DNA of 62,917 nucleotides, filler included. It is 5 parts of 5 records of this genome, joined end to end, with 100 filler letters (N's around TTAATTAATTAA, not from the genome) between each part and the next. Parts side by side here need not be neighbours in the genome. Positions count along the whole stretch, not along the records: positions 1 to 20,655 come from DRR723986_7112; 4 more parts are not named here. One strand, 5' to 3'. The position numbers and the translations under genes are program-made. Positions 5,724 to 54,027 of the stretch are shown piece after piece. The notes beneath the pieces were generated by a model, which saw only the letters and a list, made by a program, of their open reading frames with translations, was not told the DNA's origin and searched no databases. How positions within the stretch are numbered: position 1 is the first letter of the stretch; every line of letters begins with the position of its first letter.

Positions 5724-7892
5724 TTATGTAGAATTCCGTAAGTCCACCGCAGGCCGGCCGTTGTGGTCATCAACTGTTTGTCGGCAGCCGGGGAAATTGC
5801 TGCAGCCCCAGAACCAGCCTTTTTTGCTTTTGCGCCGCACCAGGGGCGAGAAACAGTGGGGGCAGGGTACCGGTTTCTGGCTGGTTCCGTCCTTGGGTTG
5901 ATCGTCTTCCAGGGGGCGGGTGCCCTTGCAGGCGGGGTACCGGGTGCACGCAAAAAAAGCGCCGAACTTGCCCTCCCGTTCAACCATCGGCGCCCGGCAT
6001 TTCGGGCAGTGAATGGCGGTGCCTGGTGTCTCTGTATTCGCCAAACCCGCAGCGGGCGCTTGCGTCATGAATCCGCGGATTTCATCCTTGAGGGATTCCA
6101 GAAACGCTCTTGGGTCCTCTTCGCCCCGGCGAACGCCCTCGAGAGTGGCCTCCCAGACAGCGGTGCGATCTGGCGTACGAATCGATTCCGGTAGCGCCGC
6201 GATCAGGGATTTCCCCTTGTAGGTGGCGCGGATAAAGCGTTTTTCCCGGAACAGGTAATCGCGGCGGAACAGCGTATCGATAATGGCTGCGCGAGTCGCT
6301 TCGGTGCCAAGGCCATCGGTTTCCCGCAGCGTTTTTCTCAGCTCGTTGTCGGCGACAAAACGGGCGATATTGGTCATGGCCGATAGCAGCGTGGCATCGG
6401 TGAAGTGTTGTGGCGGCTGGGTTTTGCGCTCGTTAGTCTGGGGGTCAGTGCAAAGGACCGGCTCGTTTTTTTCCAGTCTTGGCAACGGAGCTTTTTCTGG
6501 CTCTTGCCCGGGTTCCCGCTTGCGGATTTCCAGCGTTTTCCAGCCTGGCTCGATCACGGCTGTCTCGGTGGCGCGAAAGCGATAGTCCTGAATCGCGACC
6601 GTCAGCCGGCCTTCCCGATGCACGGCGTCAGGTGCAAACTGCATCAGATAGAATCGACTGATCAGATCGTAGATTTTCTGTTCGGCCGAAGACAGCTTGC
6701 CGTTTGGTGCGGGCCGCACTGTGGGAATGATTGCGTGGTGGGCATCCACTTTTTGGTCATTCCAGGCGGCAGAGCGGCGTTCTGTACCGGTTTTCTCGCA
6801 GAATCCGGACAAATCCGGGGCGACACGGGCGATGGCACGAATCACCGCCTCCCGTTGGCTGAAATGCTCCTCTGGCAGGTAGCGGCTGTCTGACCTTGGG
6901 TAGGTAATCAGTTGATGGCGTTCGTACAGGTTTTGGGCGGTGTCGAGCACGTCTTTCGCGCCCATCCGGTATAGTCGTCCAGCCTCTATCTGGAGTGCAG
7001 ACAGCGACAGAGGTAACGGCGGCGGTTCCGTGCGATCGCGAAACCGGGCTTCATCAATTCTGCCGGGTCGACCGCTGATGGCGGCGACAATCTGCTCGGC
7101 TACCGACTTGTCCAGCAGCCGGTTTTCTTCATCCAGATGATCCTGAAATTCGTCACCGGGTGACCAGCGAGCAATGAACGGTCGCTGGTCGGCCTCCGGC
7201 TCGCTGGCCTGGAAGGTGGCTTCGACCCGGTACCAGGGCTTGGGCTGGAAGTGCTCGATGGTGTTGTCTCGATCCACCACCAGGCCCAACACCGGAGTTT
7301 GTACCCGACCCACGGAGAAGACGCCCTGTTCGCCCCGGGTTTGATAGCTGAGGGTATAAAATCGGGTGAGATTGATGCCATAGAGCCAGTCGGCCCGCTG
7401 TCTCGCCAGCGCAGAATGGGAGAGTGGGCGGAACTCCCGGTTTTCTCGGGGGTTCTGTATGGCGCGGGCTACCGCCTTGGGGGTAAGGTCGTTGATCAGT
7501 ATCCGTTTTACCGGTGCCTTGGTGCCGAGATAGCGCAGGACTTCGTCGACCAGTAGCTGGCCTTCACGGTCGGGATCGCCGGCGTGGGTGATGAGGTCGG
7601 CCTTGCGAACCAGGGCTTCAAGAACTTTGAATTGCAGGCGCACGCTGTCTTTGGGCGTCAGTTGCCAGGGTTCCGGGAACATGGGCAGGTCTTCAATGCG
7701 CCATTTTTTCCAGGCCGGGTTATAGCGCGCAGGCTCGGCGGGCTCCAGCAGGTGGCCTATACACCAGCTTACCGTGGCAGCATCCGGTCCTTTACCGCAG
7801 CGTATCCAGCCCTGGCCTTTCTCGTGGGGGCCGGGCAGTGCGGCGGCGATGGCCCTGGCCAGACTTGGCTTTTCGGCGATGTACAGGTGCAT
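5724..7892 (-). CDS. topB: DNA topoisomerase III with C-terminal zinc ribbons
   Basis: IAEKPS, GDPDREG, SVGRVQTP, LITYPRSD, GLGTEATRA, two C4 zinc fingers. Confidence 0.93.
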   Translation of the reverse strand: MHLYIAEKPSLARAIAAALPGPHEKGQGWIRCGKGPDAATVSWCIGHLLEPAEPARYNPAWKKWRIEDLPMFPEPWQLTPKDSVRLQFKVLEALVRKADLITHAGDPDREGQLLVDEVLRYLGTKAPVKRILINDLTPKAVARAIQNPRENREFRPLSHSALARQRADWLYGINLTRFYTLSYQTRGEQGVFSVGRVQTPVLGLVVDRDNTIEHFQPKPWYRVEATFQASEPEADQRPFIARWSPGDEFQDHLDEENRLLDKSVAEQIVAAISGRPGRIDEARFRDRTEPPPLPLSLSALQIEAGRLYRMGAKDVLDTAQNLYERHQLITYPRSDSRYLPEEHFSQREAVIRAIARVAPDLSGFCEKTGTERRSAAWNDQKVDAHHAIIPTVRPAPNGKLSSAEQKIYDLISRFYLMQFAPDAVHREGRLTVAIQDYRFRATETAVIEPGWKTLEIRKREPGQEPEKAPLPRLEKNEPVLCTDPQTNERKTQPPQHFTDATLLSAMTNIARFVADNELRKTLRETDGLGTEATRAAIIDTLFRRDYLFREKRFIRATYKGKSLIAALPESIRTPDRTAVWEATLEGVRRGEEDPRAFLESLKDEIRGFMTQAPAAGLANTETPGTAIHCPKCRAPMVEREGKFGAFFACTRYPACKGTRPLEDDQPKDGTSQKPVPCPHCFSPLVRRKSKKGWFWGCSNFPGCRQTVDDHNGRPAVDLRNST

Positions 7893-8038
7893 GGGTATCT
7901 GGGGATTGGTTGCTGGCAGGGGAATGTGTCGCTTTGAGGCTTTTGTGTCAAGGGCTTCGGGGTTCCGCGGCGTACTGTAGTAGACTGTTTACACAGCAGG
8001 TCGGGACATTGATGCTTAAAGTCCGGAGTAGGTGTTTT

Positions 8039-8395
8039 ATGAAAGTACAGGAAAGCATAGAGGAAAAGCTGGTCGCGGGCTTTAACGCCAGCGTGATTTC
8101 TGTGGAGAACGAAAGCCATATGCATTCGGTGCCACCCAACTCTGAAACCCATTTCAAGGTAACGCTGGTGTCAGCGGATTTTGAAGGGCAGATGAAGGTG
8201 CGGCGCCACCAGGCAATTTACAAGGTTCTGGCGGATGAACTGGCGGGGCCGGTGCATGCTCTGGCATTGCATCTGTATACGCCGGAAGAGTGGACGGCCA
8301 GTGGTCAGGCGTCTCCGGTTTCGCCCAACTGTATGGGCGGGTCGAAAGGTGATGCAGCAATGGACAAGAAGCTTCAACAAGGAGCTAATGGATGA
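8039..8395 (+). CDS. bolA: BolA family protein
   Basis: ENESHMHSVPPNSETHFKV, RHQAIY, VHALALH. ATG at 8039 preferred over the upstream ORF start. Confidence 0.9.
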   Translation: MKVQESIEEKLVAGFNASVISVENESHMHSVPPNSETHFKVTLVSADFEGQMKVRRHQAIYKVLADELAGPVHALALHLYTPEEWTASGQASPVSPNCMGGSKGDAAMDKKLQQGANG

Positions 8396-9015
8396 GCCAG
8401 TTTTTTCAGATTCACCCGGAAACACCGCAAAAGCGTCTGATCAAGCAGGCGGTGGAGATTTTGCGCAAGGGTGGGGTGATTGTCTATCCCACAGATTCAG
8501 GCTACGCACTGGGCTGTCATCTTGGTGACAAGCAGGCGGCAGACCGTATCAAGCGAATTCGGCGCCTGGACGACAAGCACAACTTCACCCTGGTGTGTCG
8601 TGACCTGTCAGACATCGGGGTTTATGCCAAGGTGGACAATACCCAGTATCGGTTACTGAAGAATTTCACGCCGGGCCCGTACACCTTTATTCTGGACGCG
8701 ACCAGCGAGGTGCCTCGCCGGTTGCTGCATCCCAAACGGCGGTCTATCGGCATCCGGGTTCCGGACAACGAGATTGTTCGGGAATTGCTGGGTGAGCTGG
8801 GTGAGCCGATTATGAGCAGCACCCTGATTCTGCCGGGTGAAACCGAACCTTTGACCGATCCTTACGATATTCGCGAGACCCTCGGGCATGAGCTTGATCT
8901 GATTATTGATGGCGGTTTCTGCGGTATGGAGGCTACCACGGTGGTCAACTTTACCGGTGATGTGCCTGAAGTTACGCGGGTGGGCAAGGGTGATCCGGCC
9001 CCGTTTCAGGTTTGA
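8392..9015 (+). CDS. yciO: Sua5/YciO/YrdC family (threonylcarbamoyl-AMP synthase-like) protein
   Basis: MSQFFQIHPETPQ, YPTDSGYALGC, TPGPYTFIL, IGIRVPD. Confidence 0.88.
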   Translation: MSQFFQIHPETPQKRLIKQAVEILRKGGVIVYPTDSGYALGCHLGDKQAADRIKRIRRLDDKHNFTLVCRDLSDIGVYAKVDNTQYRLLKNFTPGPYTFILDATSEVPRRLLHPKRRSIGIRVPDNEIVRELLGELGEPIMSSTLILPGETEPLTDPYDIRETLGHELDLIIDGGFCGMEATTVVNFTGDVPEVTRVGKGDPAPFQV

Positions 9016-9040
9016 TCTTATTAGCAGTTACCCCCGGGCT

Positions 9041-9697
9041 TCAGGCCCGGGTATTCAGGCTGAAGGCGTAGCGTTGCTGCGCTGTGATACCCGTCTCGGC
9101 GGGTGTGGCGGTGCGGCGAAGGCTGTCATAACGGTGGATGACATCTTGCAGTCCATTGAACTGCTGGTTTTCGCTGAGCAGTGAATCCAGCAGGGAATTG
9201 TTCACGCCATAAGCCTGATTGAGCTTGAGCGCATTATCCATGAAGTGCAGGGTGGGTTCGGTCACGCTCAAGCGGCTTAACGCCTCACCAAATCCCCGGT
9301 TGTTGTTGAGATCCTGTTGTATCCTCTCCCGCACCTGGTCGGGAATTTTGCCGTCCAGCTGAATGCTGCCTTGCTCGGTTTTGCTCACGCTCAGCGCCGT
9401 TGCCGGGTGTACGTTGTATTCGGCAAGTTTGTGCCGCAAGGTTTCACGAACGTAGGACAGGTCCTGGGCAACCGTCTGCTTGTACTGGGTCAGTGGCAAT
9501 TGCCGGGTTTTCTGACTGGCCGAGTTGCGCTCCTGCCACTGTGACGGCGTGAAGCGGTCGTCGGTGCTGCTCTGGGGCTCGCCTGTGGCGGCGCCTTCAT
9601 TGCTTTTACCGGCGGGTACGTCAGTGCGCGGCGCACGGTTGTCCATGGCTTGCTGAAAGCGCGTGCTGGCCTGTAACAGTGATGTCAGCAATGACAT
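9041..9697 (-). CDS. Hypothetical protein
   Basis: 218-aa ORF, GGGGAGG RBS upstream of ATG, host-like codon usage. No family recognised. Confidence 0.65.
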   Translation of the reverse strand: MSLLTSLLQASTRFQQAMDNRAPRTDVPAGKSNEGAATGEPQSSTDDRFTPSQWQERNSASQKTRQLPLTQYKQTVAQDLSYVRETLRHKLAEYNVHPATALSVSKTEQGSIQLDGKIPDQVRERIQQDLNNNRGFGEALSRLSVTEPTLHFMDNALKLNQAYGVNNSLLDSLLSENQQFNGLQDVIHRYDSLRRTATPAETGITAQQRYAFSLNTRA

Positions 9698-9961
9698 GGT
9701 TGCCTCCCCTGAACGGAAAATCTCTGCCGGATATCACGGAATTAGTCCGTGATGCATCAGGCTTTGCAGGTTTCGGGCCAATCTGCCTTGCCTTCTGGTT
9801 TGAGTGTGCCGGGACGAATGTAAAACATTGCAAGGAATGACATAGCGGGCGCGTCCGGATGATCTGCGTCATAAAAAAATTGATGCATATCTATAAAGTT
9901 ATGCGCCAATTCGCCGTCATTACTCTTGGATGTCCAGATCATCTTCTGTTGTCGGGGTCAC

Positions 9962-11578
9962 ATGAAAAAACAATACTCAATCCGTTTCCTGTTATTGGCA
10001 GCACTGGCTGCGGCTTTCACCGTCATTCTCGTGTTTACGGTTGTTTACAGCGCGCAGTCCCAGCGAGCCCACCTCGAGGATTTCAGCCACAAATACGTGG
10101 ATGGTCTGGCAAAGTCCTTTTTCGATGGCCTTAACACCATGATGGTGACGGGTACCATTAATAACCGTGATGTTCTACGGGAGAAGGTGATGGCTCCTGA
10201 GGACGTACTGGATGTTCGGGTGATCCGCAGCGATCAGCTTAATGCCATGTACGGTGCAGGTAATGCCGCCGAACAACGCCGTGAGCCGCTGGACATGAAA
10301 GCGCTGGATGGTGAACGGGTAGAGCACTATTCGGAGAACGACGCGGGTCGTGTCTACACGTTGATCGAGCCGGTTATTGCCAGCGAAAACTATCAGGGCG
10401 TGAACTGCCTCGGCTGTCACCAGGCCCAGGAAGGGGACGTGCTTGGCGCTATTCGGGTCGACTATTCTTTGGCGGAGAGCGACGCGCGCCTGCAGCAGCA
10501 GTTGATGGTGAGTGGCGGTATCCAGATTCTGATCTTTGTGGTTATTTTCATACTGACTACCGTAGTGTTGGGGCGCCTGGTGTTTTCCCGCTTACGTCGG
10601 CTACACGACCGAATGGATGAAATCTCCCGCAATTCGGATCTCTCCATAGAGCTGGAGGTAACCCGAAACGATGAGATTGGTTCGGTCTCTCGTGCGTTCA
10701 ATCGGATGGTCGCCAAGATCCGCGCCAGCATGCATACGGTGATGGACAACGCAGAACAGGTTGAAGCGGCGGCCCGCACCATTGCCGGTAAGGCAGAGAC
10801 CACCGAGCAGGAAGTGCTGGCCCAGAAAGACAATACCGACCAGGTGGCCAGTGCCACCACCGAGATGGCCGCTTCCGCGGTGCAGGTTCGAGAGAACGCG
10901 GTGACTACCGCACGGAAATCGGCCGATACCACCAAATCGGCAGAAACCGGAGAGCATCTGGCTAGAAATGCGGTTCAGGGTATTGAATCTCTGAACGCGG
11001 AAGTCCAGAACGGTGCGCAGCGTATTGAGCAGTTGGATCAGCGGACAACGGAAATGGCCTCACGGCTGGAGCTGATTTCCGAGATTGCCGACCAGACCAA
11101 CCTGTTGGCCCTGAACGCGGCGATTGAAGCGGCCAGAGCTGGTGAGCAGGGTCGGGGATTTGCCGTGGTCGCAGACGAAGTCCGGGCGCTTGCCTCGCGC
11201 ACTCAGGCGTCCACTGAGGAGATTCGCCAAACCATTGAGGGGCTGAAAAAAGAGGTGGTGGATTGTGTCGGTACCATGCGCCATGCCTCGGAACTTGCCC
11301 AGCATCAGGTGGATTCAATTCTGAAAGTGGAAACCGAGCTGCAAACCATTGCTGCAGCGGTGCGTGAAATCACGGGGCTGAATGAGGAAATGGAGAGTGC
11401 GGCTAACGAGCAGAGCGAAGTGTCGGACTCCATCAATCAGAACGTGATTGAAATCAGCCGCTCTGCCGAGCAGACCTCCAGCGATGCCCAGGAGACCGCG
11501 CGAATTGCAGGGGATCTGCTGGCCATGGCGGAAACCCTGCGCAAAACCATCGAGCAGTTCCGCCTGTCCCAGAGCTGA
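9962..11578 (+). CDS. Methyl-accepting chemotaxis protein with periplasmic CxxCH motif
   Basis: Two TM helices, HAMP, signalling domain [34 protein letters not shown], periplasmic CLGCH. Confidence 0.92.
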
Positions 11579-11600
11579 AATGGGCGATATACCGGGGCAC

Positions 11601-12248
11601 TCAGCCCCGGTGATCAGACACAAACGGATTGGTGGCGCGTTCCTGGCCAAACGTAGACATGGGGCCGTGGCCACAGATAAAGCTAACGTCATCCCCGAGC
11701 GGGAACAGCTTTTCCCGGATAGAGTGAATCAGGGTGTTGTAATCGCCTTTCGGGAAATCCGTGCGGCCAATGGAACCATTGAACAGCACGTCACCCACCT
11801 GGGCCAGTTTTGAGCCTCGATGGAAAAACACCACATGGCCAGGGGTGTGGCCCGGCGTGTGCAGTACTTCCAGGGTTTCATTGCCAACGGTCACTGTATC
11901 CCCGTCTTCCAGCCATCGATTGGGCGTGAACACCTCCGGCGCCGGAAACCCGAACATCTGTGCCTGCATGGCCAGGCCCTGAATCCAGAAGTTGTCGTCC
12001 TTGTGCGGGCCTTCAATGGGCAGCCCCGCTGATTTGGCTAGCTCCGCCGTGCCGCCGGCGTGATCTATGTGGGCGTGGGTGAGAAGGATCTTTTCCAGAA
12101 TCACGCCTTCGTCCTCGGCTGCCGCCAGAATGCGATCCAGGTCCCCGCCAGGGTCGACCACCGCTGCTTTGTGGGTTTCGGTACACCAGAGCAGGGTGCA
12201 GTTTTGTTCAAAGGGTGTGACGGGTACGATCTTGTACTTCAGCGACAT
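11601..12248 (-). CDS. Metallo-beta-lactamase fold hydrolase (YcbL/GloC-like)
   Basis: THAHIDHAGG, HTPGHTPG, GDVLF-GSIGRTDFP, GHGP. Confidence 0.9.
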   Translation of the reverse strand: MSLKYKIVPVTPFEQNCTLLWCTETHKAAVVDPGGDLDRILAAAEDEGVILEKILLTHAHIDHAGGTAELAKSAGLPIEGPHKDDNFWIQGLAMQAQMFGFPAPEVFTPNRWLEDGDTVTVGNETLEVLHTPGHTPGHVVFFHRGSKLAQVGDVLFNGSIGRTDFPKGDYNTLIHSIREKLFPLGDDVSFICGHGPMSTFGQERATNPFVSDHRG

Positions 12249-12505
12249 ACTGTTCCAGTTTGTTCAGATTTGATTTTGCGGTAGAGAGCATCCGGGGCAA
12301 TGTCTGCTTCGTTGGGCCAGCAGATGGCTCCGAACTCATCAACTTTTGCTTGAGCAAAGAATGCCGGGTCTTTCAGGGGCTCGAACATCGGGCCAAACAA
12401 ACGATCTGCAAGGCTGATCTCGCCGTGAGTACCATCATCGAAGGTGACGGCCAGTACGTAATCGGCCTTGGCTTCCACATGGGTGACTCTGGGCATGCTG
12501 TTCAT
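12239..12505 (-). CDS. DUF2442 family protein (putative antitoxin)
   Basis: YVLAVTFDDG, FEPLKDPAFF, ICWPNEADIAPDALY typical of DUF2442. ATGA overlap with upstream DUF4160 gene. Confidence 0.8.
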   Translation of the reverse strand: MNSMPRVTHVEAKADYVLAVTFDDGTHGEISLADRLFGPMFEPLKDPAFFAQAKVDEFGAICWPNEADIAPDALYRKIKSEQTGTVCR

Positions 12506-12762
12506 TCCAATGGCTCTATCTTCTTCAGTGGCTGGTGCAGCTCGGCAAGGCGCCAGTCTGCGATAAGGTCCTGCCGGTGTTCAAAGGCCCATTCGATAAC
12601 CATCGCTTTGGCTCTTTTGGGCAGTTTGCCCTCAACAATCTCCAGCGTTTCGATCAGAATGATGGCCTCGTGTTCCCCATAATAAGCGTGAAAATGGGGA
12701 GGATTATGGTCATCGTAATACATCCGTATCAGAATGCCGAAGAATTCACTGATGGTTGGCAT
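12502..12762 (-). CDS. DUF4160 family protein (putative toxin)
   Basis: MPTISEFFGILIRMYYDDHNPPHFHA, GKLP, VIEWA. GGAGG RBS before ATG at 12762. Confidence 0.85.
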   Translation of the reverse strand: MPTISEFFGILIRMYYDDHNPPHFHAYYGEHEAIILIETLEIVEGKLPKRAKAMVIEWAFEHRQDLIADWRLAELHQPLKKIEPLE

Positions 12763-12833
12763 GGGCCCTCCGTGGCTCATAAGGTGTCATATTTTGGTAG
12801 ACCGATAATAACAATCTGCGGACAGGTGAGCTA

Positions 12834-13616
12834 TTGAAGAACTACCTCCAGAAAATCCTTCAGGGCCAGGCGATTAACTACGAGGCCTTTCTGAAGAAGC
12901 TGCCGGATTCCCAGCGTCGGCGGCATCGGGAGCTGTTCGCAACGGAGAAGGTTGGCGCCAATCGCTGGCAGATAACCATTCTTGATGAAGCTGCGTTTGC
13001 GGAGTTACATCGACAGGCCGCTTCACCCGTTAGCAGAGTAGATGCGGCGAAGAAGGGCGATTCCCACCGCCACGGCACCGATGTGAGTTTTCTGCTGGTA
13101 TATCATCACGCCCTGACAGGCAACCGGCCGGATTCGGTGGTGATTACCGGAGATTCGGTGGATATCGGTTTTCGGCCAGCGCCCCGGGTGCTGGTGGTGG
13201 AGAATGAGCGAAATTTTTATTACTACCGACAGATGCTGGCATTTGCCGGTGACTGCCTGGGCCAGACAGTTGATCTCACAAACAGCGATGTCGTGCTCGG
13301 TGGCGGCAATCGGATTACCGGTACTGCGGATTTGAACTGGCTGACCAGTTACGATGAGGTGCTCTGCGCCTTTGATTACGATGCCGGCGGCCTGCAGATG
13401 TTTTCATCGGTGCGATCGGCACTGGGCGACAAGGCCTGCTATCTGCAGCCGGCTGACTGGCAACCTTGGCTGAGCCGTTTCCGCAAAACCCCGGACTCCA
13501 CCGAAAGGTTTACAAAAGCCCTGTCGCTGGCGGAAGATCTGGAGTTTGTGTCGCTGGCGCAGGCCTTCCGGGCCACCGGCAAATTCATGGAACAGGAGAT
13601 GATTCTGGATGAGTGA
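12834..13616 (+). CDS. Toprim-domain nuclease, JetD/MksG-like
   Basis: Toprim Glu motif VLVVENERNF, DxD motif FDYDAGGL, C-terminal MEQE. TTG start with AGGTG RBS. First gene of an SMC operon. Confidence 0.75.
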   Translation: MKNYLQKILQGQAINYEAFLKKLPDSQRRRHRELFATEKVGANRWQITILDEAAFAELHRQAASPVSRVDAAKKGDSHRHGTDVSFLLVYHHALTGNRPDSVVITGDSVDIGFRPAPRVLVVENERNFYYYRQMLAFAGDCLGQTVDLTNSDVVLGGGNRITGTADLNWLTSYDEVLCAFDYDAGGLQMFSSVRSALGDKACYLQPADWQPWLSRFRKTPDSTERFTKALSLAEDLEFVSLAQAFRATGKFMEQEMILDE

Positions 13617-16551
13617 TTCACAGGCGAGCGCGAGCACGTTCACCTTCGGCATTCGCCGCCTGGTGCTGGTGGACTCCGCCGGCTTCTGTTACGTGGAAAT
13701 TCCGGTAGACAACCACGGCCTGATTCTGGGGCCGGGCAACCTGGGTAAATCCAGCTTGCTGAACTCCCTGCGCCTGTTCCTGTTGCCAGAGAATAACTTC
13801 AAGAACAGCCGCAAGAAATTTGCCTTCCGCAACGCCAGCGCCGGCAGCTTCTACACCAACGAAGAAAGCTTCCAGCACTACTTCCCCAGCCAGTTCAGCT
13901 TCCTGATTATGGAAGCGGAAAACCCGGCGGGCAGCCATTGCCAGATCCTGTATCGCGACAACGCAAGCCAGCTTAGCTACGGCCGGGCCTTTGTACCGGT
14001 CAGTTACGACCAGTTGCGACCTTTGTTCTGGAACGGCGACGATGAAGATGGCATTGGCCAGGCGGTGCCGGAGCTCTCATTCACCCGGCTGTCGGAGGCG
14101 CTGAAAAAGCTCTCGAAAGAGACCAGGCTGGTCAACGACCCGGCCAAACTGAAAACCATGCTCTACAGCAGTGAGTTGATGAACGCCGACGCGGTGCGCT
14201 ACTCCGTGCTGCCCCTGGGCGAATCGGACGAACGCAGAGTTCAGTCCCTGCGCACCCTGATCCTGCTGCTGTTCGAGATGAAGGCGGACGATCAGGCCAT
14301 GGCCAACGCCGTGGCCAGCATTATCGAAGCGGACAAGAAGTTTGCTGACGATGCCTTTGACTTCAACATCGACGATTTCCTCAATCGCCACGATCAGCTC
14401 AAGCAGCAGCAAAGCCAGCTCAACCGTATCGAGAAAGAGCGACACCGGTTTGAGAAGCTGAACCGGGACTACCAGGCCTACCAGACCCTGCTGCGCAGCC
14501 AGCACGAGTTTGCCGCCTTCCGGGACGGGGTGACCAACGCCTTGGCCGATATTGCTGCCAAACGCGGGGCGGCGCTTGAGGCTTTCAACGATCAGAACGA
14601 CACCCTGCGCCACGTGCTGCAAACCCTGAAAAAACTGGAGCAGGATGCCAGCGGTTTGAAGGGCGAGATTCGCTCCGCCGATCGGCGTATCAAGCAGGCC
14701 GAACAGAGCCAGAAAGACGGTGAGCTGCTGATCTCCCAGTATGGCGACATGACCCTGCAGGAAATTGCAGAGATCCAGACCGAAGAACTGGAAAGCAAGA
14801 AAGGCCACCTTGCTGCCCTGAAAAGCGCCGCCCAGGCGGAAATCCGACTGGAGCAGATTCAGCGCAAAAAGCAGGATCTGGAGCGCAAGCTGGAAACCCT
14901 GAAAGACCGGGAGAGCAAACAGCAGTGGCAGTTGCAGAACCAGCTGGACGAAACGACCGCTGCGCCGTTGCGGGCGGTTGATCCCCGGCTGATGATGGCG
15001 AGCCCCGGCCAGGATCTGGATGCTGATAGCAAAGCCACCATTGAAGCCTTCGCGCGCCTGTTTGCCCCCAACGATCGCGGCTTTGACTGGTTTGATACTG
15101 AATACGAGAACCAGCCTGCCCGGCACACCAACTTTGCCGAGCAACGCCATTATATTGAAGGTGAACTTCATGGTCTGGAGAAAGAACGCTCAGAGCTGGC
15201 TGACACCGCCAATCAGGAACACGACCGACCTCAGTTGATCGAGCGCACGGACAAGGAAATCCGGTCTATCGAGAAAGATCTGGAAACGCTCCAGCGCTAC
15301 CCGGCGGCGGCCACCACCCTGCGGGATGCCACCGAGGAGAAAAAGGCGGCGGAAGAGCAGCTTGCCAAGCTCGACGAGCAGGCCCGGCTGGAGCAGGAGA
15401 AACAGGACGCGGTTCAGGCGAAAGCCACGAGAGCAAAAGCAGAGAAAGATCGCACTGAAGAGCGAGAGCGCGAGCTGGCGGCCCTGAGTAAAAGTGTCGG
15501 CACTGTGGAGCACCGCTTCCCGCACCTGAGAGCGGTTGAAGCGGAGCAGCCACTGGACATTGATCGTGTATCGGCGGCCGCCTTCGACGCCCTGCAAAGC
15601 CAATTGGATGATCTGGAAGAGCGGCGCCGCAACATTCTCGACCACCTTCGCCAGTTTGTGTACCTGGGTATCCATGAAGATACCGAAGGGGAATTGCAGA
15701 AAGACAGCCCCGCGTCGTCTGTTATCCGAAGCACCTTCAAGAGCCTTTCAGATCTGTACGCCGGCATGGCCGAGCGCTGGAGTGTTCTGGAGCAGCAGGT
15801 CGGCATCCACAATGAAACCGTCGCCAGCTACCGCCAGGCCCTGAAGTCCAACCACGAACACATTGCACGGTTCGAGGCCCAGCTCAATCGGGAACTGGAC
15901 GGCGTTCGCATCAACGATCTGGTGGAAATCCGGGTGGACATTCACACCGATCCGAAATTCCGTAACTTGGTGGAAGAAGCCAACAACATTGATCCGTATG
16001 GCAATAAGCTTCAGTCCGATGCTTTCTACGACCGCCTTAGGGTGTTTGTAGCGGACTTTTTCGGGGAGCAGGGCGGCAGCAAGCGCCTCACCATGGATAA
16101 AGTCATCACCGGCATTTCCTACCGCACCCGCAAGGAGAACGCCGCCAATCTGGACAAGAAAGGCCAATCCACCTCTACTACCGCGCTGATCAACCTGGAG
16201 CTGGTTTACCGCCTGCTCAAGCGGGTGCTGTACCCTGGCGTGCAGCTGTCGTTCCCTATGGTGCTCGACGAACTGGCCAGCGTGGATATCAGCCAGATGC
16301 CGTCGTTGCTGGAACGGCTGCGCAAGCAGGGATTCAACCTGTTCTCTGCCGCTACCCACAGCGCCAGCGCCGAAGTGATCTACCTGATTGGCCGGCACCT
16401 GGAGGTGGGGCAGATGCGCACCGCGCGGCCCTACAGCAAGGAACGCACTCTGGTGTTCTGGGGCGGCGCGGAAGGTTTTACTGGTGGTGAACCGCTGAGC
16501 CACTGGGCAGACCAGACCCAGAACAGCTTGCTGGAGCCGGTGGATGAGTAA
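13609..16551 (+). CDS. SMC-family ATPase (MksB/JetC-like condensin subunit)
   Basis: Walker A GPGNLGKS, long coiled coils, signature-position GQSTST, Walker B/D-loop MVLDELASVD, H-loop SAATH. 980 aa. Confidence 0.85.
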   Translation: MSDSQASASTFTFGIRRLVLVDSAGFCYVEIPVDNHGLILGPGNLGKSSLLNSLRLFLLPENNFKNSRKKFAFRNASAGSFYTNEESFQHYFPSQFSFLIMEAENPAGSHCQILYRDNASQLSYGRAFVPVSYDQLRPLFWNGDDEDGIGQAVPELSFTRLSEALKKLSKETRLVNDPAKLKTMLYSSELMNADAVRYSVLPLGESDERRVQSLRTLILLLFEMKADDQAMANAVASIIEADKKFADDAFDFNIDDFLNRHDQLKQQQSQLNRIEKERHRFEKLNRDYQAYQTLLRSQHEFAAFRDGVTNALADIAAKRGAALEAFNDQNDTLRHVLQTLKKLEQDASGLKGEIRSADRRIKQAEQSQKDGELLISQYGDMTLQEIAEIQTEELESKKGHLAALKSAAQAEIRLEQIQRKKQDLERKLETLKDRESKQQWQLQNQLDETTAAPLRAVDPRLMMASPGQDLDADSKATIEAFARLFAPNDRGFDWFDTEYENQPARHTNFAEQRHYIEGELHGLEKERSELADTANQEHDRPQLIERTDKEIRSIEKDLETLQRYPAAATTLRDATEEKKAAEEQLAKLDEQARLEQEKQDAVQAKATRAKAEKDRTEERERELAALSKSVGTVEHRFPHLRAVEAEQPLDIDRVSAAAFDALQSQLDDLEERRRNILDHLRQFVYLGIHEDTEGELQKDSPASSVIRSTFKSLSDLYAGMAERWSVLEQQVGIHNETVASYRQALKSNHEHIARFEAQLNRELDGVRINDLVEIRVDIHTDPKFRNLVEEANNIDPYGNKLQSDAFYDRLRVFVADFFGEQGGSKRLTMDKVITGISYRTRKENAANLDKKGQSTSTTALINLELVYRLLKRVLYPGVQLSFPMVLDELASVDISQMPSLLERLRKQGFNLFSAATHSASAEVIYLIGRHLEVGQMRTARPYSKERTLVFWGGAEGFTGGEPLSHWADQTQNSLLEPVDE

Positions 16552-17971
16552 ACGCTTCAGCACCCTGGACACCACCCGGCTGCTGTTTGAGCACCCGAAA
16601 ATCCTGTTCCGGATGATCGAGCGCATGGACCGCAATGAAGCCCGGTTCATCCGGGAAAGCGACCTGGTGGCCGAGGTGATGGATTACACTCGAGGCCTGG
16701 GCAAGGCCGATCGGGAGCGCGTGCGGCTGGCCCTGAACACCGACAATCTGTTTCGCAGTGGGCTGATCATCGACATCATCAAGGCCGACGGCGAACGCCG
16801 GCTGGTATTTCAGGACGCACTGATCAATCTGATGCGGGCCTGTAACGCCTCGCTCTACCAGGAGCTTACTGACGCCCGCCTGCGCGGCCATCTGGTGACT
16901 CTTCGGGATGTGCGCAATCGCCTGGAAACCAGCAGTTTCAGTGATGCTGATCCGGATTACACCGAGCTGCGGGGCGATCTGAACGAGCGGGTCAGCCAAC
17001 TGATCGGCCTGTTGCGCCAGAACGTGTTGCGCATGCAGACCATCAGTGCCCAGCTGGCGGACCTGTCCGGTGATGCCAGCCGGGCGCCGGAGAAGTACCT
17101 GGAGTTCCGCCAGAATCTGTTTGAGCAGATCGTGACCCTTTATGAACGCCATATCAAACCCACGCTGGTGTTCCTGAACCCGGACACCCGGCTGCCTGAC
17201 GGCAGCAATCTGTTCGAAACCCTGGAAGCCATGGTGCGCCTGCTGGAGGGCCACGATGACCACAGCCTGGCGGATCAGCTGTTCCGTTCCTCTATCAGCC
17301 TGAACGCCCTGTACAAGCCCATTCAGGCGGTGGCCCAGGAGGTCGAACACTTCCTGCGCAAAACCCGCCGGGGTATGGCCCAGTACAACGCCATGGAGCA
17401 TTTCTACGGCAAGCTGCGTGCGCTCAAAGACGACACCGAAACCCTCAGCCTGCGCCGAAAATGGCTCGAAGGCGGCGATTTTGCCCGCAGCACCGGCTTC
17501 CTGGTGGGCCTGCGGGCACAGCAGCGGCCCAAGCATTATGCCTTTGGCCAGTCGTCGAGCTACTACCAGTTGTTGTTCAGCGAACTGGAGCTGCGCCTGA
17601 GCGATCTGCGCCGCCAATCCGAAGTGCCGGTACTGCAGGAAGTGGCCGGAGGCGGCCGCGAAAGCCGGGTAGACCTTCAGCGCATCAACCAATTGTATAA
17701 GTGGCTGGAAACCCTGGAATTGCGGCCCACGGCGGATCTGGTGCGGGAGCTTCACGGCCGGCTGGATGGCTTCATCCCGGGCTACCGTTTTGCGGACCTG
17801 CTGGCAGCCCTGAACCGGCTGGTCAATTCGCCGCCGGAGGGTATGCAGGTGACAACCACTAACCGTTTCCGCACCCTGGAACAGGCGCCGGACTGTGAAC
17901 AGTTTGTGTACCGCAAACGACGCCTTGAAACCGATACGACTGATACAGAACAAGAGCCAGACCATGCCTGA
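16544..17971 (+). CDS. Putative kleisin subunit (MksF/JetA-like)
   Basis: 475-aa mostly helical protein coupled between the SMC and MksE-like genes. Assigned mainly by size and context. Confidence 0.6.
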   Translation: MSKRFSTLDTTRLLFEHPKILFRMIERMDRNEARFIRESDLVAEVMDYTRGLGKADRERVRLALNTDNLFRSGLIIDIIKADGERRLVFQDALINLMRACNASLYQELTDARLRGHLVTLRDVRNRLETSSFSDADPDYTELRGDLNERVSQLIGLLRQNVLRMQTISAQLADLSGDASRAPEKYLEFRQNLFEQIVTLYERHIKPTLVFLNPDTRLPDGSNLFETLEAMVRLLEGHDDHSLADQLFRSSISLNALYKPIQAVAQEVEHFLRKTRRGMAQYNAMEHFYGKLRALKDDTETLSLRRKWLEGGDFARSTGFLVGLRAQQRPKHYAFGQSSSYYQLLFSELELRLSDLRRQSEVPVLQEVAGGGRESRVDLQRINQLYKWLETLELRPTADLVRELHGRLDGFIPGYRFADLLAALNRLVNSPPEGMQVTTTNRFRTLEQAPDCEQFVYRKRRLETDTTDTEQEPDHA

Positions 17972-18587
17972 TTTCGTGGAAACCCGGGATACAGAGAGCC
18001 CCCTGAACGAGCAGGGCGCGACCAGCTTCGAGCAGATCCTGCCGGCTCACAGTGCCGCCATCTACCGGGAGTTCCAGGCTGGCCGGGTGATTGTGCGGGA
18101 TGTGTGGGACAACAACCGCTCGGAACTTCGTGCCAACCCCCTCTACAACCTGCTGTATAACCACCTGTCTCACTTCCGTACTTTCTATGAGCATCTGGGT
18201 AGCGACCTGGTGTTCAATGAAACCGGCGCCTTTTTCTTCCTGAAAGAGAGCAGTGACGACGAAAGCGAAGAGCACGATGAAAACGCTTTCCGGGTGCAGG
18301 TGGTATTGCTTCTGATCGGCCGTTACTTTGCCCGAAGCGGCAGAGATCTGGATTACCTGGGGCGCCCTGAAGCCGGTTTAAACGAGCAGGATCTGGCAAA
18401 TCTGGGGGCGGATGAGGAGTATCAGGACATCCTTCGGGCCGCCCGTTTCGAGAAAGGGTTGAGCGAAGCGCTGGATTACCTGGAAAAACGGAACCTGCTG
18501 TTTCGCTCCGGGGCAGGGCGCTATTTCCTCAGCTCCGCCGGTATTTACTTTTTAAACCAGCTGGTGCAGGAGTACGAGCAGAGCTAG
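17964..18587 (+). CDS. Condensin KITE subunit (MksE/JetB-like)
   Basis: IYREFQAGRVI, NPLYNLL, FRTFYEHLG-LV, FFFL, RYFLSSAG resemble MksE-type tandem winged-helix proteins. ATG at 17964 overlaps the upstream stop. Confidence 0.7.
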   Translation: MPDFVETRDTESPLNEQGATSFEQILPAHSAAIYREFQAGRVIVRDVWDNNRSELRANPLYNLLYNHLSHFRTFYEHLGSDLVFNETGAFFFLKESSDDESEEHDENAFRVQVVLLLIGRYFARSGRDLDYLGRPEAGLNEQDLANLGADEEYQDILRAARFEKGLSEALDYLEKRNLLFRSGAGRYFLSSAGIYFLNQLVQEYEQS

Positions 18588-42750: not shown

Positions 42751-43370
42751 GGGCGGCTCTCCTGTTCGGTCAGAAGGTTGTGGTCGATAAGCACCTTCGC
42801 AAAGCGATCTGGCGATGTGAAGAGATGTGTCTTCCAGCCACGGGCGCTGGCGGCATCAATGTTGTCCTGGCGATCGTCCGTGAAAAGAAGAGATCCATCC
42901 GAAAGACCTGAATCAGTCTCTAACAAGGCGAAAAAGGCTGCATCGGGCTTGGCCATGCGATGATGGGCCGAGATGTAGCGGCGGTCGAATTCATCGAGAA
43001 ACGGATATGCCTTTTGAGCGATCTCAAAGCTTTCCGCCCCGAAATTGGACAATGCAAAGACCGGAATACCCTTTTGGCGCAGCTTTCGCAGCAGGTGAAC
43101 ACTGTGTGGTATGGCCGGGCTGGCCATCTCGATCCAATGATCATGCCAAACCCGTATTTCGTCTCTAAACAAGGGGTTTTCATCTGCAAATGCATAGATG
43201 ACATCTCGAAATCCTTCGCCCAGATCCACCCGGTCATTCATGCCCGCCAGATCAACGGCGGCGAAAATCTCTCGCCGCCGGATCTCGCCAAACAGCCTGT
43301 CATAGAGCCGTTCAGGCGCCCATTCGATCAGGACGTTCCCGATGTCGAAAACGACCGCCTCAATCGTCAC
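42747..43370 (-). CDS. HAD family phosphatase
   Basis: FDIGNVL, ALSN, KPD, FTDDR-DN. Confidence 0.88.
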   Translation of the reverse strand: MTIEAVVFDIGNVLIEWAPERLYDRLFGEIRRREIFAAVDLAGMNDRVDLGEGFRDVIYAFADENPLFRDEIRVWHDHWIEMASPAIPHSVHLLRKLRQKGIPVFALSNFGAESFEIAQKAYPFLDEFDRRYISAHHRMAKPDAAFFALLETDSGLSDGSLLFTDDRQDNIDAASARGWKTHLFTSPDRFAKVLIDHNLLTEQESRP

Positions 43371-44206
43371 GAGGTGACGCCATAAAGCGCCTCGGCATGG
43401 AAGCTGATGTGATCTTCGATGAAGGTAGAGACGAAGAAATAGGAGTGGTCATAGCCCGGCTGCATGCGGATTGATCCGGGCTGGCGGCGGGCCGTCATGG
43501 CCTCTGCCAGTGCTTCGGTCTTCAGCAAATCGCCGAACTGATCCGCGGTGCCGGTGTCGATCAGGACCGGGCCGGGGAAGCCCTTGGCGCGCATCAGCAT
43601 GGTCGCGTCATGCGCTTCCCACAGGGCGGTGTTGTCGCCCAGATAGGCACCAAGCTGCTTGCGGCCCCAGTCGCTCTCCATCGGGTTGCAGATGGGCGAA
43701 AATGCCGAGACGCTGGCGAACCGGTCGGGGAAGTTCATGGCAATGGTCAACGCGCCGTGGCCGCCCATGGAATGCCCGGTGATGCCCTGACGGCTGGCGT
43801 CCAGCGCGAAGCGGTCGAAGATCAGCGTCGGCAGTTCCTCGGTCACGTAGTCCCACATCTGGAAATGTTCGGCCCACGGGTCTTGCGTGGCATTCACGTA
43901 GAAGCCGGCGCCCTGGCCGAGATCATAGGCATCGTCATTCGGCACACCCGGCCCACGCGGGCTTGTGTCAGGGAAAATCAGCGCGATCCCCTGTTCGGCG
44001 GCCCAAAGCTGCGCCCCTGCCTTAACCATCGCGTTTTCATGGGTGCAGGTCAGGCCGGACAGATACCAAAGCACTGGAACCGGGCCGTCCTCTGCCTCGG
44101 CCGGAAGGAACAGGCCAAATGTCATGTCCGTGCCCGTGGCGCTGGAGGCGTGGCGATAGACGCCCTGGGTGCCGCCAAAACACCGGTTTTCCGAAATCGT
44201 TTCCAT
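43367..44206 (-). CDS. fghA: S-formylglutathione hydrolase
   Basis: [35 protein letters not shown] before ATG at 44206. Confidence 0.95.
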   Translation of the reverse strand: METISENRCFGGTQGVYRHASSATGTDMTFGLFLPAEAEDGPVPVLWYLSGLTCTHENAMVKAGAQLWAAEQGIALIFPDTSPRGPGVPNDDAYDLGQGAGFYVNATQDPWAEHFQMWDYVTEELPTLIFDRFALDASRQGITGHSMGGHGALTIAMNFPDRFASVSAFSPICNPMESDWGRKQLGAYLGDNTALWEAHDATMLMRAKGFPGPVLIDTGTADQFGDLLKTEALAEAMTARRQPGSIRMQPGYDHSYFFVSTFIEDHISFHAEALYGVTS

Positions 44207-44267
44207 GGGTCGTCCTCCGCAAAAGCTTTCGCCAAGGGGTAGCGCGGGCAGGCCCATGCGGCAAGCG

Positions 44268-45200
44268 CTAGAGCAGCGGTGTGACCCACGCGATGACGAG
44301 AGAGACAGTCACGATGGAAATCGCCGTGGACACAAGGATCGCCGCTGACACCCGCTGCGGGGCGACGCCGTAGTGCTGCGCAAGGATGTAGACGTTTCCG
44401 GCCACCGGCAGAGCCGAGGCCGAAATCATCACCGCCGCGTCAAAGGCTGCAACCGGAAACAACCACAGTGCCGCAATGGCGACGGCACCAGGATGCAGAA
44501 CCAGTTTGCAGAAGCTGAGCCAAGCGGCGACGGACATGCGTTCCGCCGATTTCCCGGCCAGCGAGGCCCCGATTGCAAACAATGCGCCGGGGGTCGCGGC
44601 AGCGCCAAGGATGCCAAGAAACTCATTCGCAACGTCAGGGATCGGCAAGGCCAGAGCCGACCAGACCAGACCAAGCGCGATGGACACGATCATCGGGTTG
44701 CGCAGCAGCCCCTTGCCCACGGTGCCCAGAATGGCCATTGACATGCGCCCGTCACGCGACCCGGTGATCAGGATCGTGATCAGGCTGGAAAACACGATAA
44801 GGTCGATGGCCAGTACCATCAAAACCGGCCCGGCAGCGTTTTCACCCAGAAGGACAACCAGCATCGGTACACCGAGAAATCCCGTGTTGCCGATCACCGA
44901 ACATTGAGCCTCGACAGCAGCTTCTTGCAAACCGACGCCCCGGAAGAAGGCAACCGCAGTGGCCAACAGATACACCACGCCGCATCCCCACAGATAGGCC
45001 GCGACAAACCACCAATCGAAGATTTCCGACAGTGACAGGTTGGCAGCAAAACGGAACAGCATGGCCGAAAGGGCAAAGTAGAAGACAAACTTTGTCAGAT
45101 AGGCCGTCGCCTCAGCCGTGAAGAACCCGGTCCGGCCTGACTGGAACCCGAGCGCGATCAACGCGAAGAAGGGCAGGGTCTTGAGAAATATCTCGATCAT
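44268..45200 (-). CDS. AEC family transporter
   Basis: Highly hydrophobic. FVFYFALSAMLF, NTGFLGVP, ALPVAGNV. Confidence 0.88.
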   Translation of the reverse strand: MIEIFLKTLPFFALIALGFQSGRTGFFTAEATAYLTKFVFYFALSAMLFRFAANLSLSEIFDWWFVAAYLWGCGVVYLLATAVAFFRGVGLQEAAVEAQCSVIGNTGFLGVPMLVVLLGENAAGPVLMVLAIDLIVFSSLITILITGSRDGRMSMAILGTVGKGLLRNPMIVSIALGLVWSALALPIPDVANEFLGILGAAATPGALFAIGASLAGKSAERMSVAAWLSFCKLVLHPGAVAIAALWLFPVAAFDAAVMISASALPVAGNVYILAQHYGVAPQRVSAAILVSTAISIVTVSLVIAWVTPLL

Positions 45201-45254
45201 GTGGGCATCGCTAGGGCAACATTCGGACCCTGTCCAGCACCTGCTTTGCTTGAT

Positions 45255-45275
45255 GAACTAAACAGGTCAGTCTAT
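45255..45275. promoter_or_regulatory. Putative TetR operator
   Basis: GAACTAAACAGGTCAGTCTAT, 16/21 identical to the motif upstream of the orthologous tetR at 51898-51918. Confidence 0.55.
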
Positions 45276-45300
45276 TGTACAGATGTCAGTAGGAGGCAGC

Positions 45301-45918
45301 ATGAACATCAACGCGCCGCTCAAGAAAGGCCGGAAATTCGACCAGGTTCTTGCCGGGGCGAGAGAGGTGTTTCTGCGCGAGGGATTCGAGGGGGCCAGCG
45401 TTGACCAGATCGCTCGCGATGCGGGTGTATCCAAGGCAACGCTCTACAGCTATTTTCCCGATAAACAGGCTCTGTTCATGGCGGTTCTCACCTCGCAGTG
45501 TCAGATGCAATCGGAACAGGCCATGGGGATCGAGATCCTGCAGCGCCCGGTGCCAGAGGCGCTTCATTCCATCGCGCTTTCCTTCCTGAATTTCCTAATG
45601 TCGGATTTCGCGATCCAGGTGTTCCGTGTGTGCGTCGCCGAATCGACCCGTTTCCCGGAACTGGGCCGCGCTTTTTACGACAGTGGCCCCAAACAGGTGC
45701 TGGATCAGATTGCCGCCTATCTTGGCAGCGAAAAGGTCAGTCAGGAACTGCGGATCGACGATCCCTACATGGCAGCCGATCAGTTCCTTCAGCTTTGCCG
45801 GGCCGACATGCTGCTGCGTCGGATTCTCAATGTCGATACCGATGTTTCGCCCGAAAAGATGGACCGCGTCGCGCGGGAAACGGTGGCGACTTTCCTCGCG
45901 CGCTATCGCCGCGCCTGA
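45301..45918 (+). CDS. TetR/AcrR family regulator
   Basis: GFEGASVDQIARDAGVSKATLYSYFPDK, RFPELG, FYDSGP. Confidence 0.92.
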   Translation: MNINAPLKKGRKFDQVLAGAREVFLREGFEGASVDQIARDAGVSKATLYSYFPDKQALFMAVLTSQCQMQSEQAMGIEILQRPVPEALHSIALSFLNFLMSDFAIQVFRVCVAESTRFPELGRAFYDSGPKQVLDQIAAYLGSEKVSQELRIDDPYMAADQFLQLCRADMLLRRILNVDTDVSPEKMDRVARETVATFLARYRRA

Positions 45919-51015: not shown

Positions 51016-51254
51016 CAGGCCAGTTTTGCAATCTTGCCCTGTGCGTCGATCTCAGCATTGAGCCGCGCAGGGTTGAAATCCATCGTCACCGCATCGCCGG
51101 GGTGAATGATCCGCAAATCTTTCCCGATAACGGACAACGCGGCCTCGGGCTTGCCCAGCAAGCTGCGCCACTGGTCCGCACCGCAGGCGTTTATCGCAGG
51201 CTCTCCGCTGCACCCTGCCAAAACCAAAAGCGCCAATGCGATGGTGCCCCTCAT
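51009..51254 (-). CDS. I78 family peptidase-inhibitor lipoprotein
   Basis: Lipobox LAGC, RIIHPGDAVTMDFNPARLN. Confidence 0.85.
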   Translation of the reverse strand: MRGTIALALLVLAGCSGEPAINACGADQWRSLLGKPEAALSVIGKDLRIIHPGDAVTMDFNPARLNAEIDAQGKIAKLACY

Positions 51255-51868
51255 ACGCCATACCTCGCCAGAAATGTATCGACAGCGTTTTCCACAACAT
51301 AGTTAATTTCTTCTTCGCTGACTGTTTTTGCCACGCCAAAAATCAAACGGGTCCAGATATCGGCTTTGCACAGGTCGCCAAACTGGTCCGCCGCCAACAT
51401 CTTGTCCTTGATCCGCAACTCGCCCCGCGCTTCGGCCATTTCGAAATACTCGGCCATCTCGGCTCGCATCACAGCAGGGCCGGAGTTGTAGAACTGTTGA
51501 CCCAACTCGGGAAAACGGTCCTTCTCTGCGACGCACATGCAAAAGATCTGCTGTCCGAATTCCGAGGTGATGAACCTGACAAAATGGCAGCCGGTTTCCA
51601 TCAGCACTTTGCGTGGTGGTGCTTCAAAATTGATTTGGTCCATCGCCTCATCTGATTGGCGGCAACATTCAGCGTTGGCCACTTCGAGAAACAGCAGCCG
51701 CTTGTCAGGGAAATAGCTATAAAGCGTGGCCTTGGACACGGCGGCAACACGGGCAATTTCATCCACGCTGGCGCCTTCGAACCCATCGGCCATAAACACC
51801 TCGCGGGCACCGGCAAGAACCTGATCGAACTTGCGGCCTTTGCGAATCTGTTGTGCGAGTGCTGTCAT
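51251..51868 (-). CDS. TetR/AcrR family regulator (ortholog of 45301-45918)
   Basis: KGRKFDQVLAGAREVF, VSKATLYSYFPDK. GGAG RBS before ATG at 51868. Confidence 0.92.
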   Translation of the reverse strand: MTALAQQIRKGRKFDQVLAGAREVFMADGFEGASVDEIARVAAVSKATLYSYFPDKRLLFLEVANAECCRQSDEAMDQINFEAPPRKVLMETGCHFVRFITSEFGQQIFCMCVAEKDRFPELGQQFYNSGPAVMRAEMAEYFEMAEARGELRIKDKMLAADQFGDLCKADIWTRLIFGVAKTVSEEEINYVVENAVDTFLARYGV

Positions 51869-51897
51869 GGATGCTCCAGAATGTTGAATATGAGAAT

Positions 51898-51918
51898 ATA
51901 AACCGTTTTGTTTAGTTC
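51898..51918. promoter_or_regulatory. Putative TetR operator
   Basis: Minus strand GAACTAAACAAAACGGTTTAT contains the inverted repeat TAAAC-N6-GTTTA. Conserved with 45255-45275. Confidence 0.55.
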
Positions 51919-51974
51919 CAAGGAATAAATCCCTTTCCGTCACGCAAAGTCGGTTGTTCTCGCCACACGCAAGT

Positions 51975-51991
51975 ATTAGAATCATTCTAAT
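51975..51991. promoter_or_regulatory. Irr iron control element (ICE)
   Basis: ATTAGAA-TCA-TTCTAAT palindrome matching the ICE consensus TTTAGAA-N3-TTCTAAA, just upstream of the mbfA RBS. Confidence 0.8.
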
Positions 51992-52009
51992 TAGCCGGAG
52001 GATACTGCC

Positions 52010-52984: not shown

Positions 52985-53035
52985 CGGGCCGCCGAGGCAC
53001 CTTGCGCCCGCCCCTCTGGCTGGTTACCCAAGGCT

Positions 53036-53965: not shown

Positions 53966-54027
53966 TCTTTCCAGTACTGACTGTTGCAAGGTCCGGCCCG
54001 GCGTGGCGGACATGACAAAAGGATCCG

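Follow-up and report, generated by a model that had tools for sequence, protein, structure and literature searches.

The locus described here raises the question of whether four adjacent genes of a Marinobacter chromosome, found in the 62,917-nucleotide (nt) stretch of DNA that was analysed (the window), encode a Wadjet-like complex of a kind not described before. The genes, designated D (Toprim protein), C (structural maintenance of chromosomes (SMC) ATPase), A (candidate kleisin) and B (MksE-like KITE subunit), lie in that order on one strand (Table 1). As set out below, the operon is probably a member of a separate, rare clade of MukBEF-like (Mks)/Wadjet SMC complexes, for which plasmid restriction like that by Wadjet is suggested by analogy. 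Other genomes and loci are referred to by handles beginning with G and L, respectively.

The list of open reading frames (ORFs) confirms four co-oriented, overlapping genes with products of the sizes given in the original prediction. The ORF for B as listed is longer and includes an internal ATG, which gives the shorter product; this form was taken because the homologues are 207–208 amino acids (aa) long. Neighbouring genes overlap by 8 nt at all three junctions (ATGAGTGA, ATGAGTAA and ATGCCTGA), which is the pattern of translationally coupled genes. A simple scan for a promoter or terminator at the operon gave nothing above chance. RNA-library contigs from four runs of four studies span the operon, and single contigs bridge the C/A and A/B junctions; these are a weak hint of expression, as one run contains contigs of 62 kb and such contigs do not prove transcription or a single transcript.

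The assignment of the C product as an SMC ATPase, made in the original prediction, is borne out by profile comparison. The profile of C matched that of nine Mks SMC subunits at 100% (hhalign; E 1e-42, 846 columns), and the Walker A residues G46 and K47, the Walker B residues D887 and E888 and the signature-like residues Q853 S854 ... T857 T858 are invariant in eight aligned homologues. A reversed-sequence control of C scored 87%, confined to the coiled coil. Hence, the match to the Mks proteins rests on the head regions, and matches to the coiled coil alone, such as those of the PADLOC models JetC1 (E 5.1e-7) and LmuB (E 1.1e-7), count little. A single type I JetC gave 37.6%, only in the P-loop region (hhalign), and the sole Pfam match was a sub-threshold P-loop hit (AAA_29, E 0.015). 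The C homologue of G055 matches NCBIfam NF040859 over its full length (E 2.6e-13). Conservation is concentrated in two head halves at about residues 1–250 and 750–950. The intervening ~500 aa are less conserved and, as estimated from crude composition and the conservation profile, have a coiled-coil-like composition with a Pro/Gly-rich break at about 453–522.

B was likewise expected to be MksE-like, and its match to Pfam MksE (E 8.2e-23, 82 bits against a cut-off of 27) points to a KITE subunit of this type. In hhalign comparisons it scored 97.7% with eight MksE proteins (E 2e-12) and 89.3% with nine type I JetB proteins, and among the PADLOC models it weakly matched JetB1 (E 6.3e-5) and LmuC (E 0.005). 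In NCBI annotation, close homologues bear the name 'condensin complex protein MksE'. Within the Marinobacter clade, B has an N-terminal extension of ~30 aa that includes a conserved F-[ED]-x-[IV]-L-P stretch; the distant members G385, G402 and G055 lack this extension. In type I Wadjet, an N-terminal motif of JetB contacts JetD.

The first protein of the operon had been proposed to be a Toprim protein, and residues 115–257 of D match Pfam JetD_C (E 6.6e-8, 32.5 bits against a cut-off of 22), which argues for a JetD-type Toprim domain at about these positions. The profile of the D family matched that of six JetD proteins at 94.2% (E 1.2e-7; reversed control 0.3%) over the Toprim part only, and that of two DUF7281 proteins from Mks operons at 88.8% over nearly the full length (hhalign). 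The match to PADLOC JetD1 is weak (E 1.5e-5). Homologues of D are named 'Wadjet JetD domain-containing protein' in public annotation. In an alignment of seven proteins, with identity down to 21%, and in a separate alignment of nine sequences, residues S77, H78, E123, N124, F128, D152, G158, N159, D181, D183, G185, G186, E253, Q254 and E255 are invariant. Since E123, D181 and D183 are among them, the predicted metal-binding residues of the Toprim domain are in place. The N-terminal ~110 aa of D belong to no known family; the N-terminal region of canonical JetD is ~215 aa long.

A is the least readily classified of the four products. It had no match in Pfam, PADLOC or NCBIfam, its family comprises 82 representative clusters among 1.84 billion, and none of the kleisin Pfam families was matched by 54 aligned members. 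When the A alignment was compared with nine Mks kleisins by hhalign, a score of 95.3% was obtained (E 2.1e-8; reversed control 0.9%), with residues 6–298 of A aligned to kleisin residues 37–309 and the most conserved motifs of the two families falling on each other. In language-model features, two close homologues of A lie nearest to the MukF (0.96) and JetA (0.95) clusters. A is thus regarded as a candidate MksF-like kleisin from a family lacking a Pfam model, and the claim that the 475-aa protein is a kleisin finds sequence-level support in the first ~300 residues only. Among 151 genomes drawn from the class, none contained the MukF domain PF03882.

The order of the genes is a property of the family and not an accident of one genome. 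C-A-B on one strand was found in all 24 loci of the D-C-A-B family that were compared, and no other order occurred. D is intact directly upstream of C in 13 of these, a remnant or gone in ten and absent in one (G055, with C-A-B and no D alongside). The 13 intact loci are those of the window, G009, G030, G008, G017, G019, the second copy in G020, a Photobacterium damselae plasmid, G402, G385 and three Pseudomonas genomes, the last being three of the seven loci that were found with a single Pseudomonas homologue. In the same order-level genome samples, kleisin-KITE-SMC was kept in 9/9 Mks-like and 9/9 type I Wadjet loci, and the nuclease, where present, follows the SMC gene. These 18 canonical loci agree with the statement in the original prediction that described orders keep kleisin-KITE-SMC; D-C-A-B is indeed not a circular permutation of A-B-C-D. 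A FastTree phylogeny of 29 SMC subunits placed all 13 D-C-A-B rows in a single group (Shimodaira–Hasegawa-like support 99) that is sister to nine Mks rows, with seven type I JetC rows apart; the sampling is small and covers neither MukB nor type II or III JetC. The proposal of a distinct subtype is in keeping with this fixed order in a separate clade.

Two members of the family have additional features. In the Photobacterium damselae copy (L014), two small genes, one for a DUF5406 family protein and the other for a 147-aa hypothetical protein, lie between C and A. G020 possesses three Mks-like systems, namely an orthologue of the window operon, a divergent D-C-A-B copy (L012) beside Gabija genes, and a canonical operon (L025), ~25 kb from the window orthologue, in which F (424 aa), E (197 aa) and B (923 aa) are followed by a gene for a 293-aa DUF7281 Toprim-like protein.

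Among characterised systems, type I Wadjet (JetABCD, equivalent to MksBEFG and EptABCD) has the same four parts, SMC, kleisin-like, KITE and a JetD_C Toprim with E and DxD, and is also patchy and associated with defence islands. It differs in the order A-B-C-D, invariant in the nine loci examined, in a nuclease of ~400 aa that includes DUF3322, whereas D is much shorter and lacks this domain, and in an SMC protein of 1105–1161 aa, longer than C. An mksFEBG structure is described as conserved in PMC10123090. Pseudomonas-type MksBEF includes the nearest relatives of C, A and B by profiles and of C on the tree. Its SMC protein is also short (~920–980 aa) and B belongs to the same Pfam family, but the order F-E-B(-G), found in nine of nine loci, is different. 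Canonical-order Mks operons with a terminal DUF7281 Toprim protein (G020 and G564) form a small branch of near relatives, and these 291–293-aa proteins share the short architecture of D. No DUF7281 Toprim partner was found in the genomes with true equivalog MksBEF (G556, G061 and G438). MukBEF follows the same SMC-kleisin-KITE logic, and the features of the A homologues are closest to MukF, but it has no nuclease, is ordered mukF-mukE-mukB (annotation of E. coli K-12) and has a MukB much longer than C. Lamassu (LmuABC/DdmABC) combines an SMC-like ATPase with an effector and also occurs in defence islands; it has other effectors and no kleisin-KITE pair, whereas the operon has a KITE and a kleisin-like protein and lacks LmuA.

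It had been suggested that standard models may miss the operon, and the PADLOC-DB v2 models for Wadjet I–III gave no JetA match and only weak JetB1, JetC1 and JetD1 matches, as judged by model scores and not by pipeline calls. Against the NCBIfam Mks equivalogs NF040857–NF040859, B reached only 16 of the 400 bits required, and neither C nor A gave a match at E <= 1. Profiles of A, B, C, D and the Mks kleisins found nothing significant among PDB sequences, and thus no subunit matched a solved Wadjet or MukBEF chain in this profile-to-sequence search. NF040857 'condensinMksB' has 412 positions and matches a kleisin-sized protein, and NF040859 'condensinMksF' has 926 positions and matches an SMC-sized protein; these names are reversed relative to the usage in PMC7617805, where MksB is the SMC protein and MksF the kleisin.

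No description of the D-C-A-B arrangement or of a 'type IV Wadjet' was found in the literature searched, where 'Wadjet-like' is used only in other contexts, and an already described subtype with this order was thus not encountered. The operon is therefore most likely an undescribed variant, two of the four genes of which are already suggestively named in public annotation. Wadjet-group operons were catalogued with iterated profiles and an optional flanking nuclease by Burmann et al. 2025 (PMC7617805), and the D-C-A-B family may already be included in the supplement to that study.

The distribution of the system is patchy. Going by the names given to homologues, the window belongs to Marinobacter. 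Within the genus, A is present in 101 of 191 genomes (85 of 153 high-quality genomes) and D in 92 of 191, so that the system is not universal in Marinobacter. Outside the genus, A was found in one of 24 other genera of the order and in three of 400 genomes sampled throughout the class, including the nearest relative. Homologues named 'hypothetical' occur in Vibrio, Photobacterium, Shewanella, Pseudoalteromonas, Pseudomonas, Allohahella, Pistricoccus and Corallincola. The window operon follows a gene for a metallo-β-lactamase (MBL)-fold hydrolase, as do the systems of G008, G017, G019 and G004. In G002, the left flank matches through the end of the MBL-fold gene, where similarity stops, and no system is present. 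There is therefore a presence/absence polymorphism at the site of the window operon. In G009/G030, G016 and G037, the system lies elsewhere in the chromosome. The downstream GGDEF gene was dropped as a synteny marker because of its many paralogues.

Neighbouring genes were scanned with PADLOC (121 ORFs within 7 kb at 14 loci, E <= 1e-12), and known or candidate defence genes were found at nine of the 14 loci, i.e. in seven of the 12 distinct contexts (Table 1). The Photobacterium copy is carried by a 599-kb plasmid and adjoins a type I-F CRISPR-Cas locus.

Table 1. Locations of the features of the window and of other loci, and genes recorded next to further copies of the system.
Feature	Location	Strand	Details
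Operon D-C-A-B	12834-18587	+	four genes
D	12834-13616	+	260 aa; TTG start; AGGTGA ahead of start
Toprim motif E123-N124 of D	13200-13205	+	invariant in alignment
Toprim motif D181-x-D183-x-G-G of D	13374-13391	+	invariant in alignment
C	13609-16551	+	980 aa
A	16544-17971	+	475 aa
B	17964-18587	+	207 aa from ATG at 17964
B, ORF as listed	17895-18587	+	230 aa
N-terminal extension of B	17964-18070	+	~30 aa
Two small overlapping ORFs between MBL-fold gene and D	12239-12780	-	DUF4160 protein (92 aa, E 6.2e-23); DUF2442 protein (88 aa, E 6.6e-19)
Type IA topoisomerase	5724-7892	-	722 aa; Toprim, Topoisom_bac and zinc ribbon domains
Esterase-permease-regulator set 1	43367-45918		
Esterase-permease-regulator set 2	51251-54864		
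Inserted genes of Photobacterium damselae copy, L014 (NZ_CP090497.1)	7216-7990		
Canonical operon of G020, L025 (G020:C20:314000-332000)	7356-12876		
Orphan D of G004, L060 (G004:C11)	9146-9985		279 aa
Lone JetD of G055, L026 (G055:C2)	7655-8851		398 aa; DUF3322 and JetD_C
Neighbours of second G020 copy			GajA (9e-174), GajB (3e-229), PDC-M49A/B
Neighbours of Photobacterium copy			Cas3f; Csy1 annotated alongside
Neighbour in G016			type IV methyl-directed restriction enzyme
Neighbour in G037			PDC-S36
Neighbours in Pseudomonas sp. NA-150			ZacA, ZacB, ZacC (Azaca)
Neighbours at three related Pseudomonas loci			ThsB, WYL, PDC-S06
Neighbour in P. aestuarii			DruE-like helicase, weaker match

The operon is under purifying selection. 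The ratio of nonsynonymous to synonymous substitution rates (dN/dS) between the window and G008 is 0.06–0.08 for C, A and B and 0.21 for D, and between the window and G016 it is 0.08–0.09 for C, A and B; these values, from two orthologues, are rough as dS is saturated (>1). D is also the least conserved of the four in sequence (61% identity to G008, compared with 77–84% for the others).

The following mode of action is suggested by analogy with characterised Wadjet relatives, which provide the basis for loading, loop extrusion and licensed cutting (review PMC10586767). C would form the SMC ATPase dimer, with A as the kleisin closing the ring at the C heads and B as a dimeric KITE bound to A, and D would act as a dimeric Toprim nuclease, a shortened version of the JetD/MksG type. 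After loading on DNA, the C-A-B motor would use ATP to extrude loops. Once a small circular foreign DNA had been fully extruded, C-A-B would license D to cut it, and plasmids or similar elements would be restricted. As D lacks the CAP-like region, evolves faster and has been lost repeatedly, its control may differ from that in type I, and the motor may also serve without the nuclease. A bolder version is that the operon represents a fourth type of Wadjet, in which a minimal Toprim protein free of CAP is licensed differently from JetD and repeated loss of D converts an immune SMC complex into a nuclease-free chromosomal one. This proposal is tentative and should be taken as rather doubtful at present; if it is true, the loss of D within one genus would be a proposed route to MksBEF and MukBEF caught in progress.

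Several observations weigh against a Wadjet-like role for the operon. One is the loss of the nuclease. In ten Marinobacter genomes (G016, G004 (contig 3), G037, G601, G612, G628, G657, G582, G598 and G618), C-A-B is intact and D is a remnant of 20–90 codons or gone, with C of 979–981 aa, A of 466–480 aa and B intact wherever the fetched stretch reaches. The remnants end at differing points, and G657 has no trace of D. Six further candidates (G728, G705, G693, G646, G670 and G709) are known from presence tables only, and two fragmented assemblies were left out of the count. D has thus been deleted, with C, A and B intact, in about a tenth or more of the carriers in the genus, and a role independent of the nuclease would account for this no less well than defence would. 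Therefore, the motor may work without a nuclease or with one supplied from elsewhere. G004 carries, on a contig other than that of its C-A-B locus, an intact orphan D of the window type that has none of the other three genes beside it, and in G055 a lone canonical JetD, adjoining a gene for a HipA-like kinase, is present.

The composition of D and A also has to be considered. DUF3322, the N-terminal CAP/arm domain of JetD, had no match in the window D or in the other D proteins scanned, whereas the canonical JetD proteins of G002 and G055 match it at E 1e-34 to 1e-40; control of D may therefore differ from that of canonical JetD. Kleisins of the Wadjet/MksBEFG group carry a winged-helix domain at either end and bridge the SMC heads; the C-terminal 175 aa of A had no detectable match in hhalign comparisons, which included the C-termini of the Mks kleisins and JetA. 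No similarity of A was detected to 12 type I JetA (DUF3375) proteins, nor was a match found to MukF of E. coli, but the Mks kleisins used as a control failed in both comparisons; hence these tests lack power and are no evidence against a kleisin. Turning to context, five of the 14 loci scanned (the window, G009, G402, G385 and G055) had no defence neighbour, and the neighbours in the window are housekeeping genes, with no integrase, tRNA or recognised defence gene within 7 kb. No experiment on the D-C-A-B family was found in the literature.

Much of this could be accommodated if the complex were a chromosome-organising condensin of the MksBEF type, in which C-A-B folds or segregates the chromosome and D is accessory or vestigial. 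The close relationship of C, A and B to Pseudomonas-type Mks proteins, the housekeeping setting of the window locus at a site common to several species, the deletion of D in at least ten genomes that retain intact ORFs for C, A and B, and dN/dS below 0.1 for these three even in comparison with G016, from which D is missing, would all be expected in that case. A core chromosome function would not be expected to show the distribution seen, however, with the system missing from about half of the genus and rare elsewhere; an intact D with invariant catalytic residues is retained by most carriers, and seven of the 12 contexts are defence neighbourhoods. A condensin is therefore considered an unlikely explanation. 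That the operon is a decaying relic with no present function is hardly credible. The deletions of D, a verified internal TAG in A of G017 and the split of C into two ORFs in G402 could be taken as signs of decay, but in the window none of the four frames is interrupted and the overlaps are coupled, dN/dS lies well below 1 and the catalytic residues are invariant across genera. An apparent internal stop in G014 was rejected as a sign of a pseudogene, being the natural stop read through.

The defence neighbourhoods are also compatible with a trigger or target other than that of Wadjet, such as phage DNA or, as in Lamassu, DNA ends; D would then cleave nucleic acid of the phage or the host. Most of the neighbours belong to anti-phage systems (Gabija, Thoeris ThsB, Azaca and CRISPR), the N-terminal region of D is different from and much shorter than that of JetD, D evolves faster than the other subunits, and C has the weak coiled-coil match to LmuB. 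On the other hand, a kleisin with a KITE defines the Muk/Mks/Wadjet group and not Lamassu, no LmuA-like effector is encoded, the LmuC match of B is weak, and the Toprim domain is of the JetD and not the OLD type. Such a target seems improbable, and a Wadjet-like complex acting on plasmids remains the preferred reading, in which the defence role is suggested by genomic context and patchiness.

Wadjet is, to our knowledge, the one SMC complex whose loop extrusion feeds directly into an enzymatic read-out, and we know of mechanistic work on type I and one type II structure only. Being sister to nuclease-free Pseudomonas Mks, yet having a half-size nuclease, the D-C-A-B clade would be a compact and divergent system for defining the parts of JetD that licensing requires. 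The genus provides a natural series, with many genomes having an intact D, at least ten with D deleted, one with D relocated and ~90 of 191 without the system, which could test how an immune SMC complex turns to housekeeping. With the models now used to find defence systems, too few operons of this kind would be counted in Vibrio, Shewanella, Pseudomonas, Pseudoalteromonas, Photobacterium and Marinobacter.

Other genes of the window were recorded. The PADLOC model DpdF matched the type IA topoisomerase (E 7e-93), and this candidate was rejected as the match was read as one of shared topoisomerase domains. DUF4160 and DUF2442 proteins, encoded as an overlapping pair between the MBL-fold gene and D, are often seen together as a toxin-antitoxin-like module; the pair is absent at the corresponding site of G008, where the MBL gene abuts D. 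Further along the window, two similar sets of genes ~8 kb apart each include an esterase (PF00756), a Mem_trans permease (PF03547) and a TetR_C_7 regulator.

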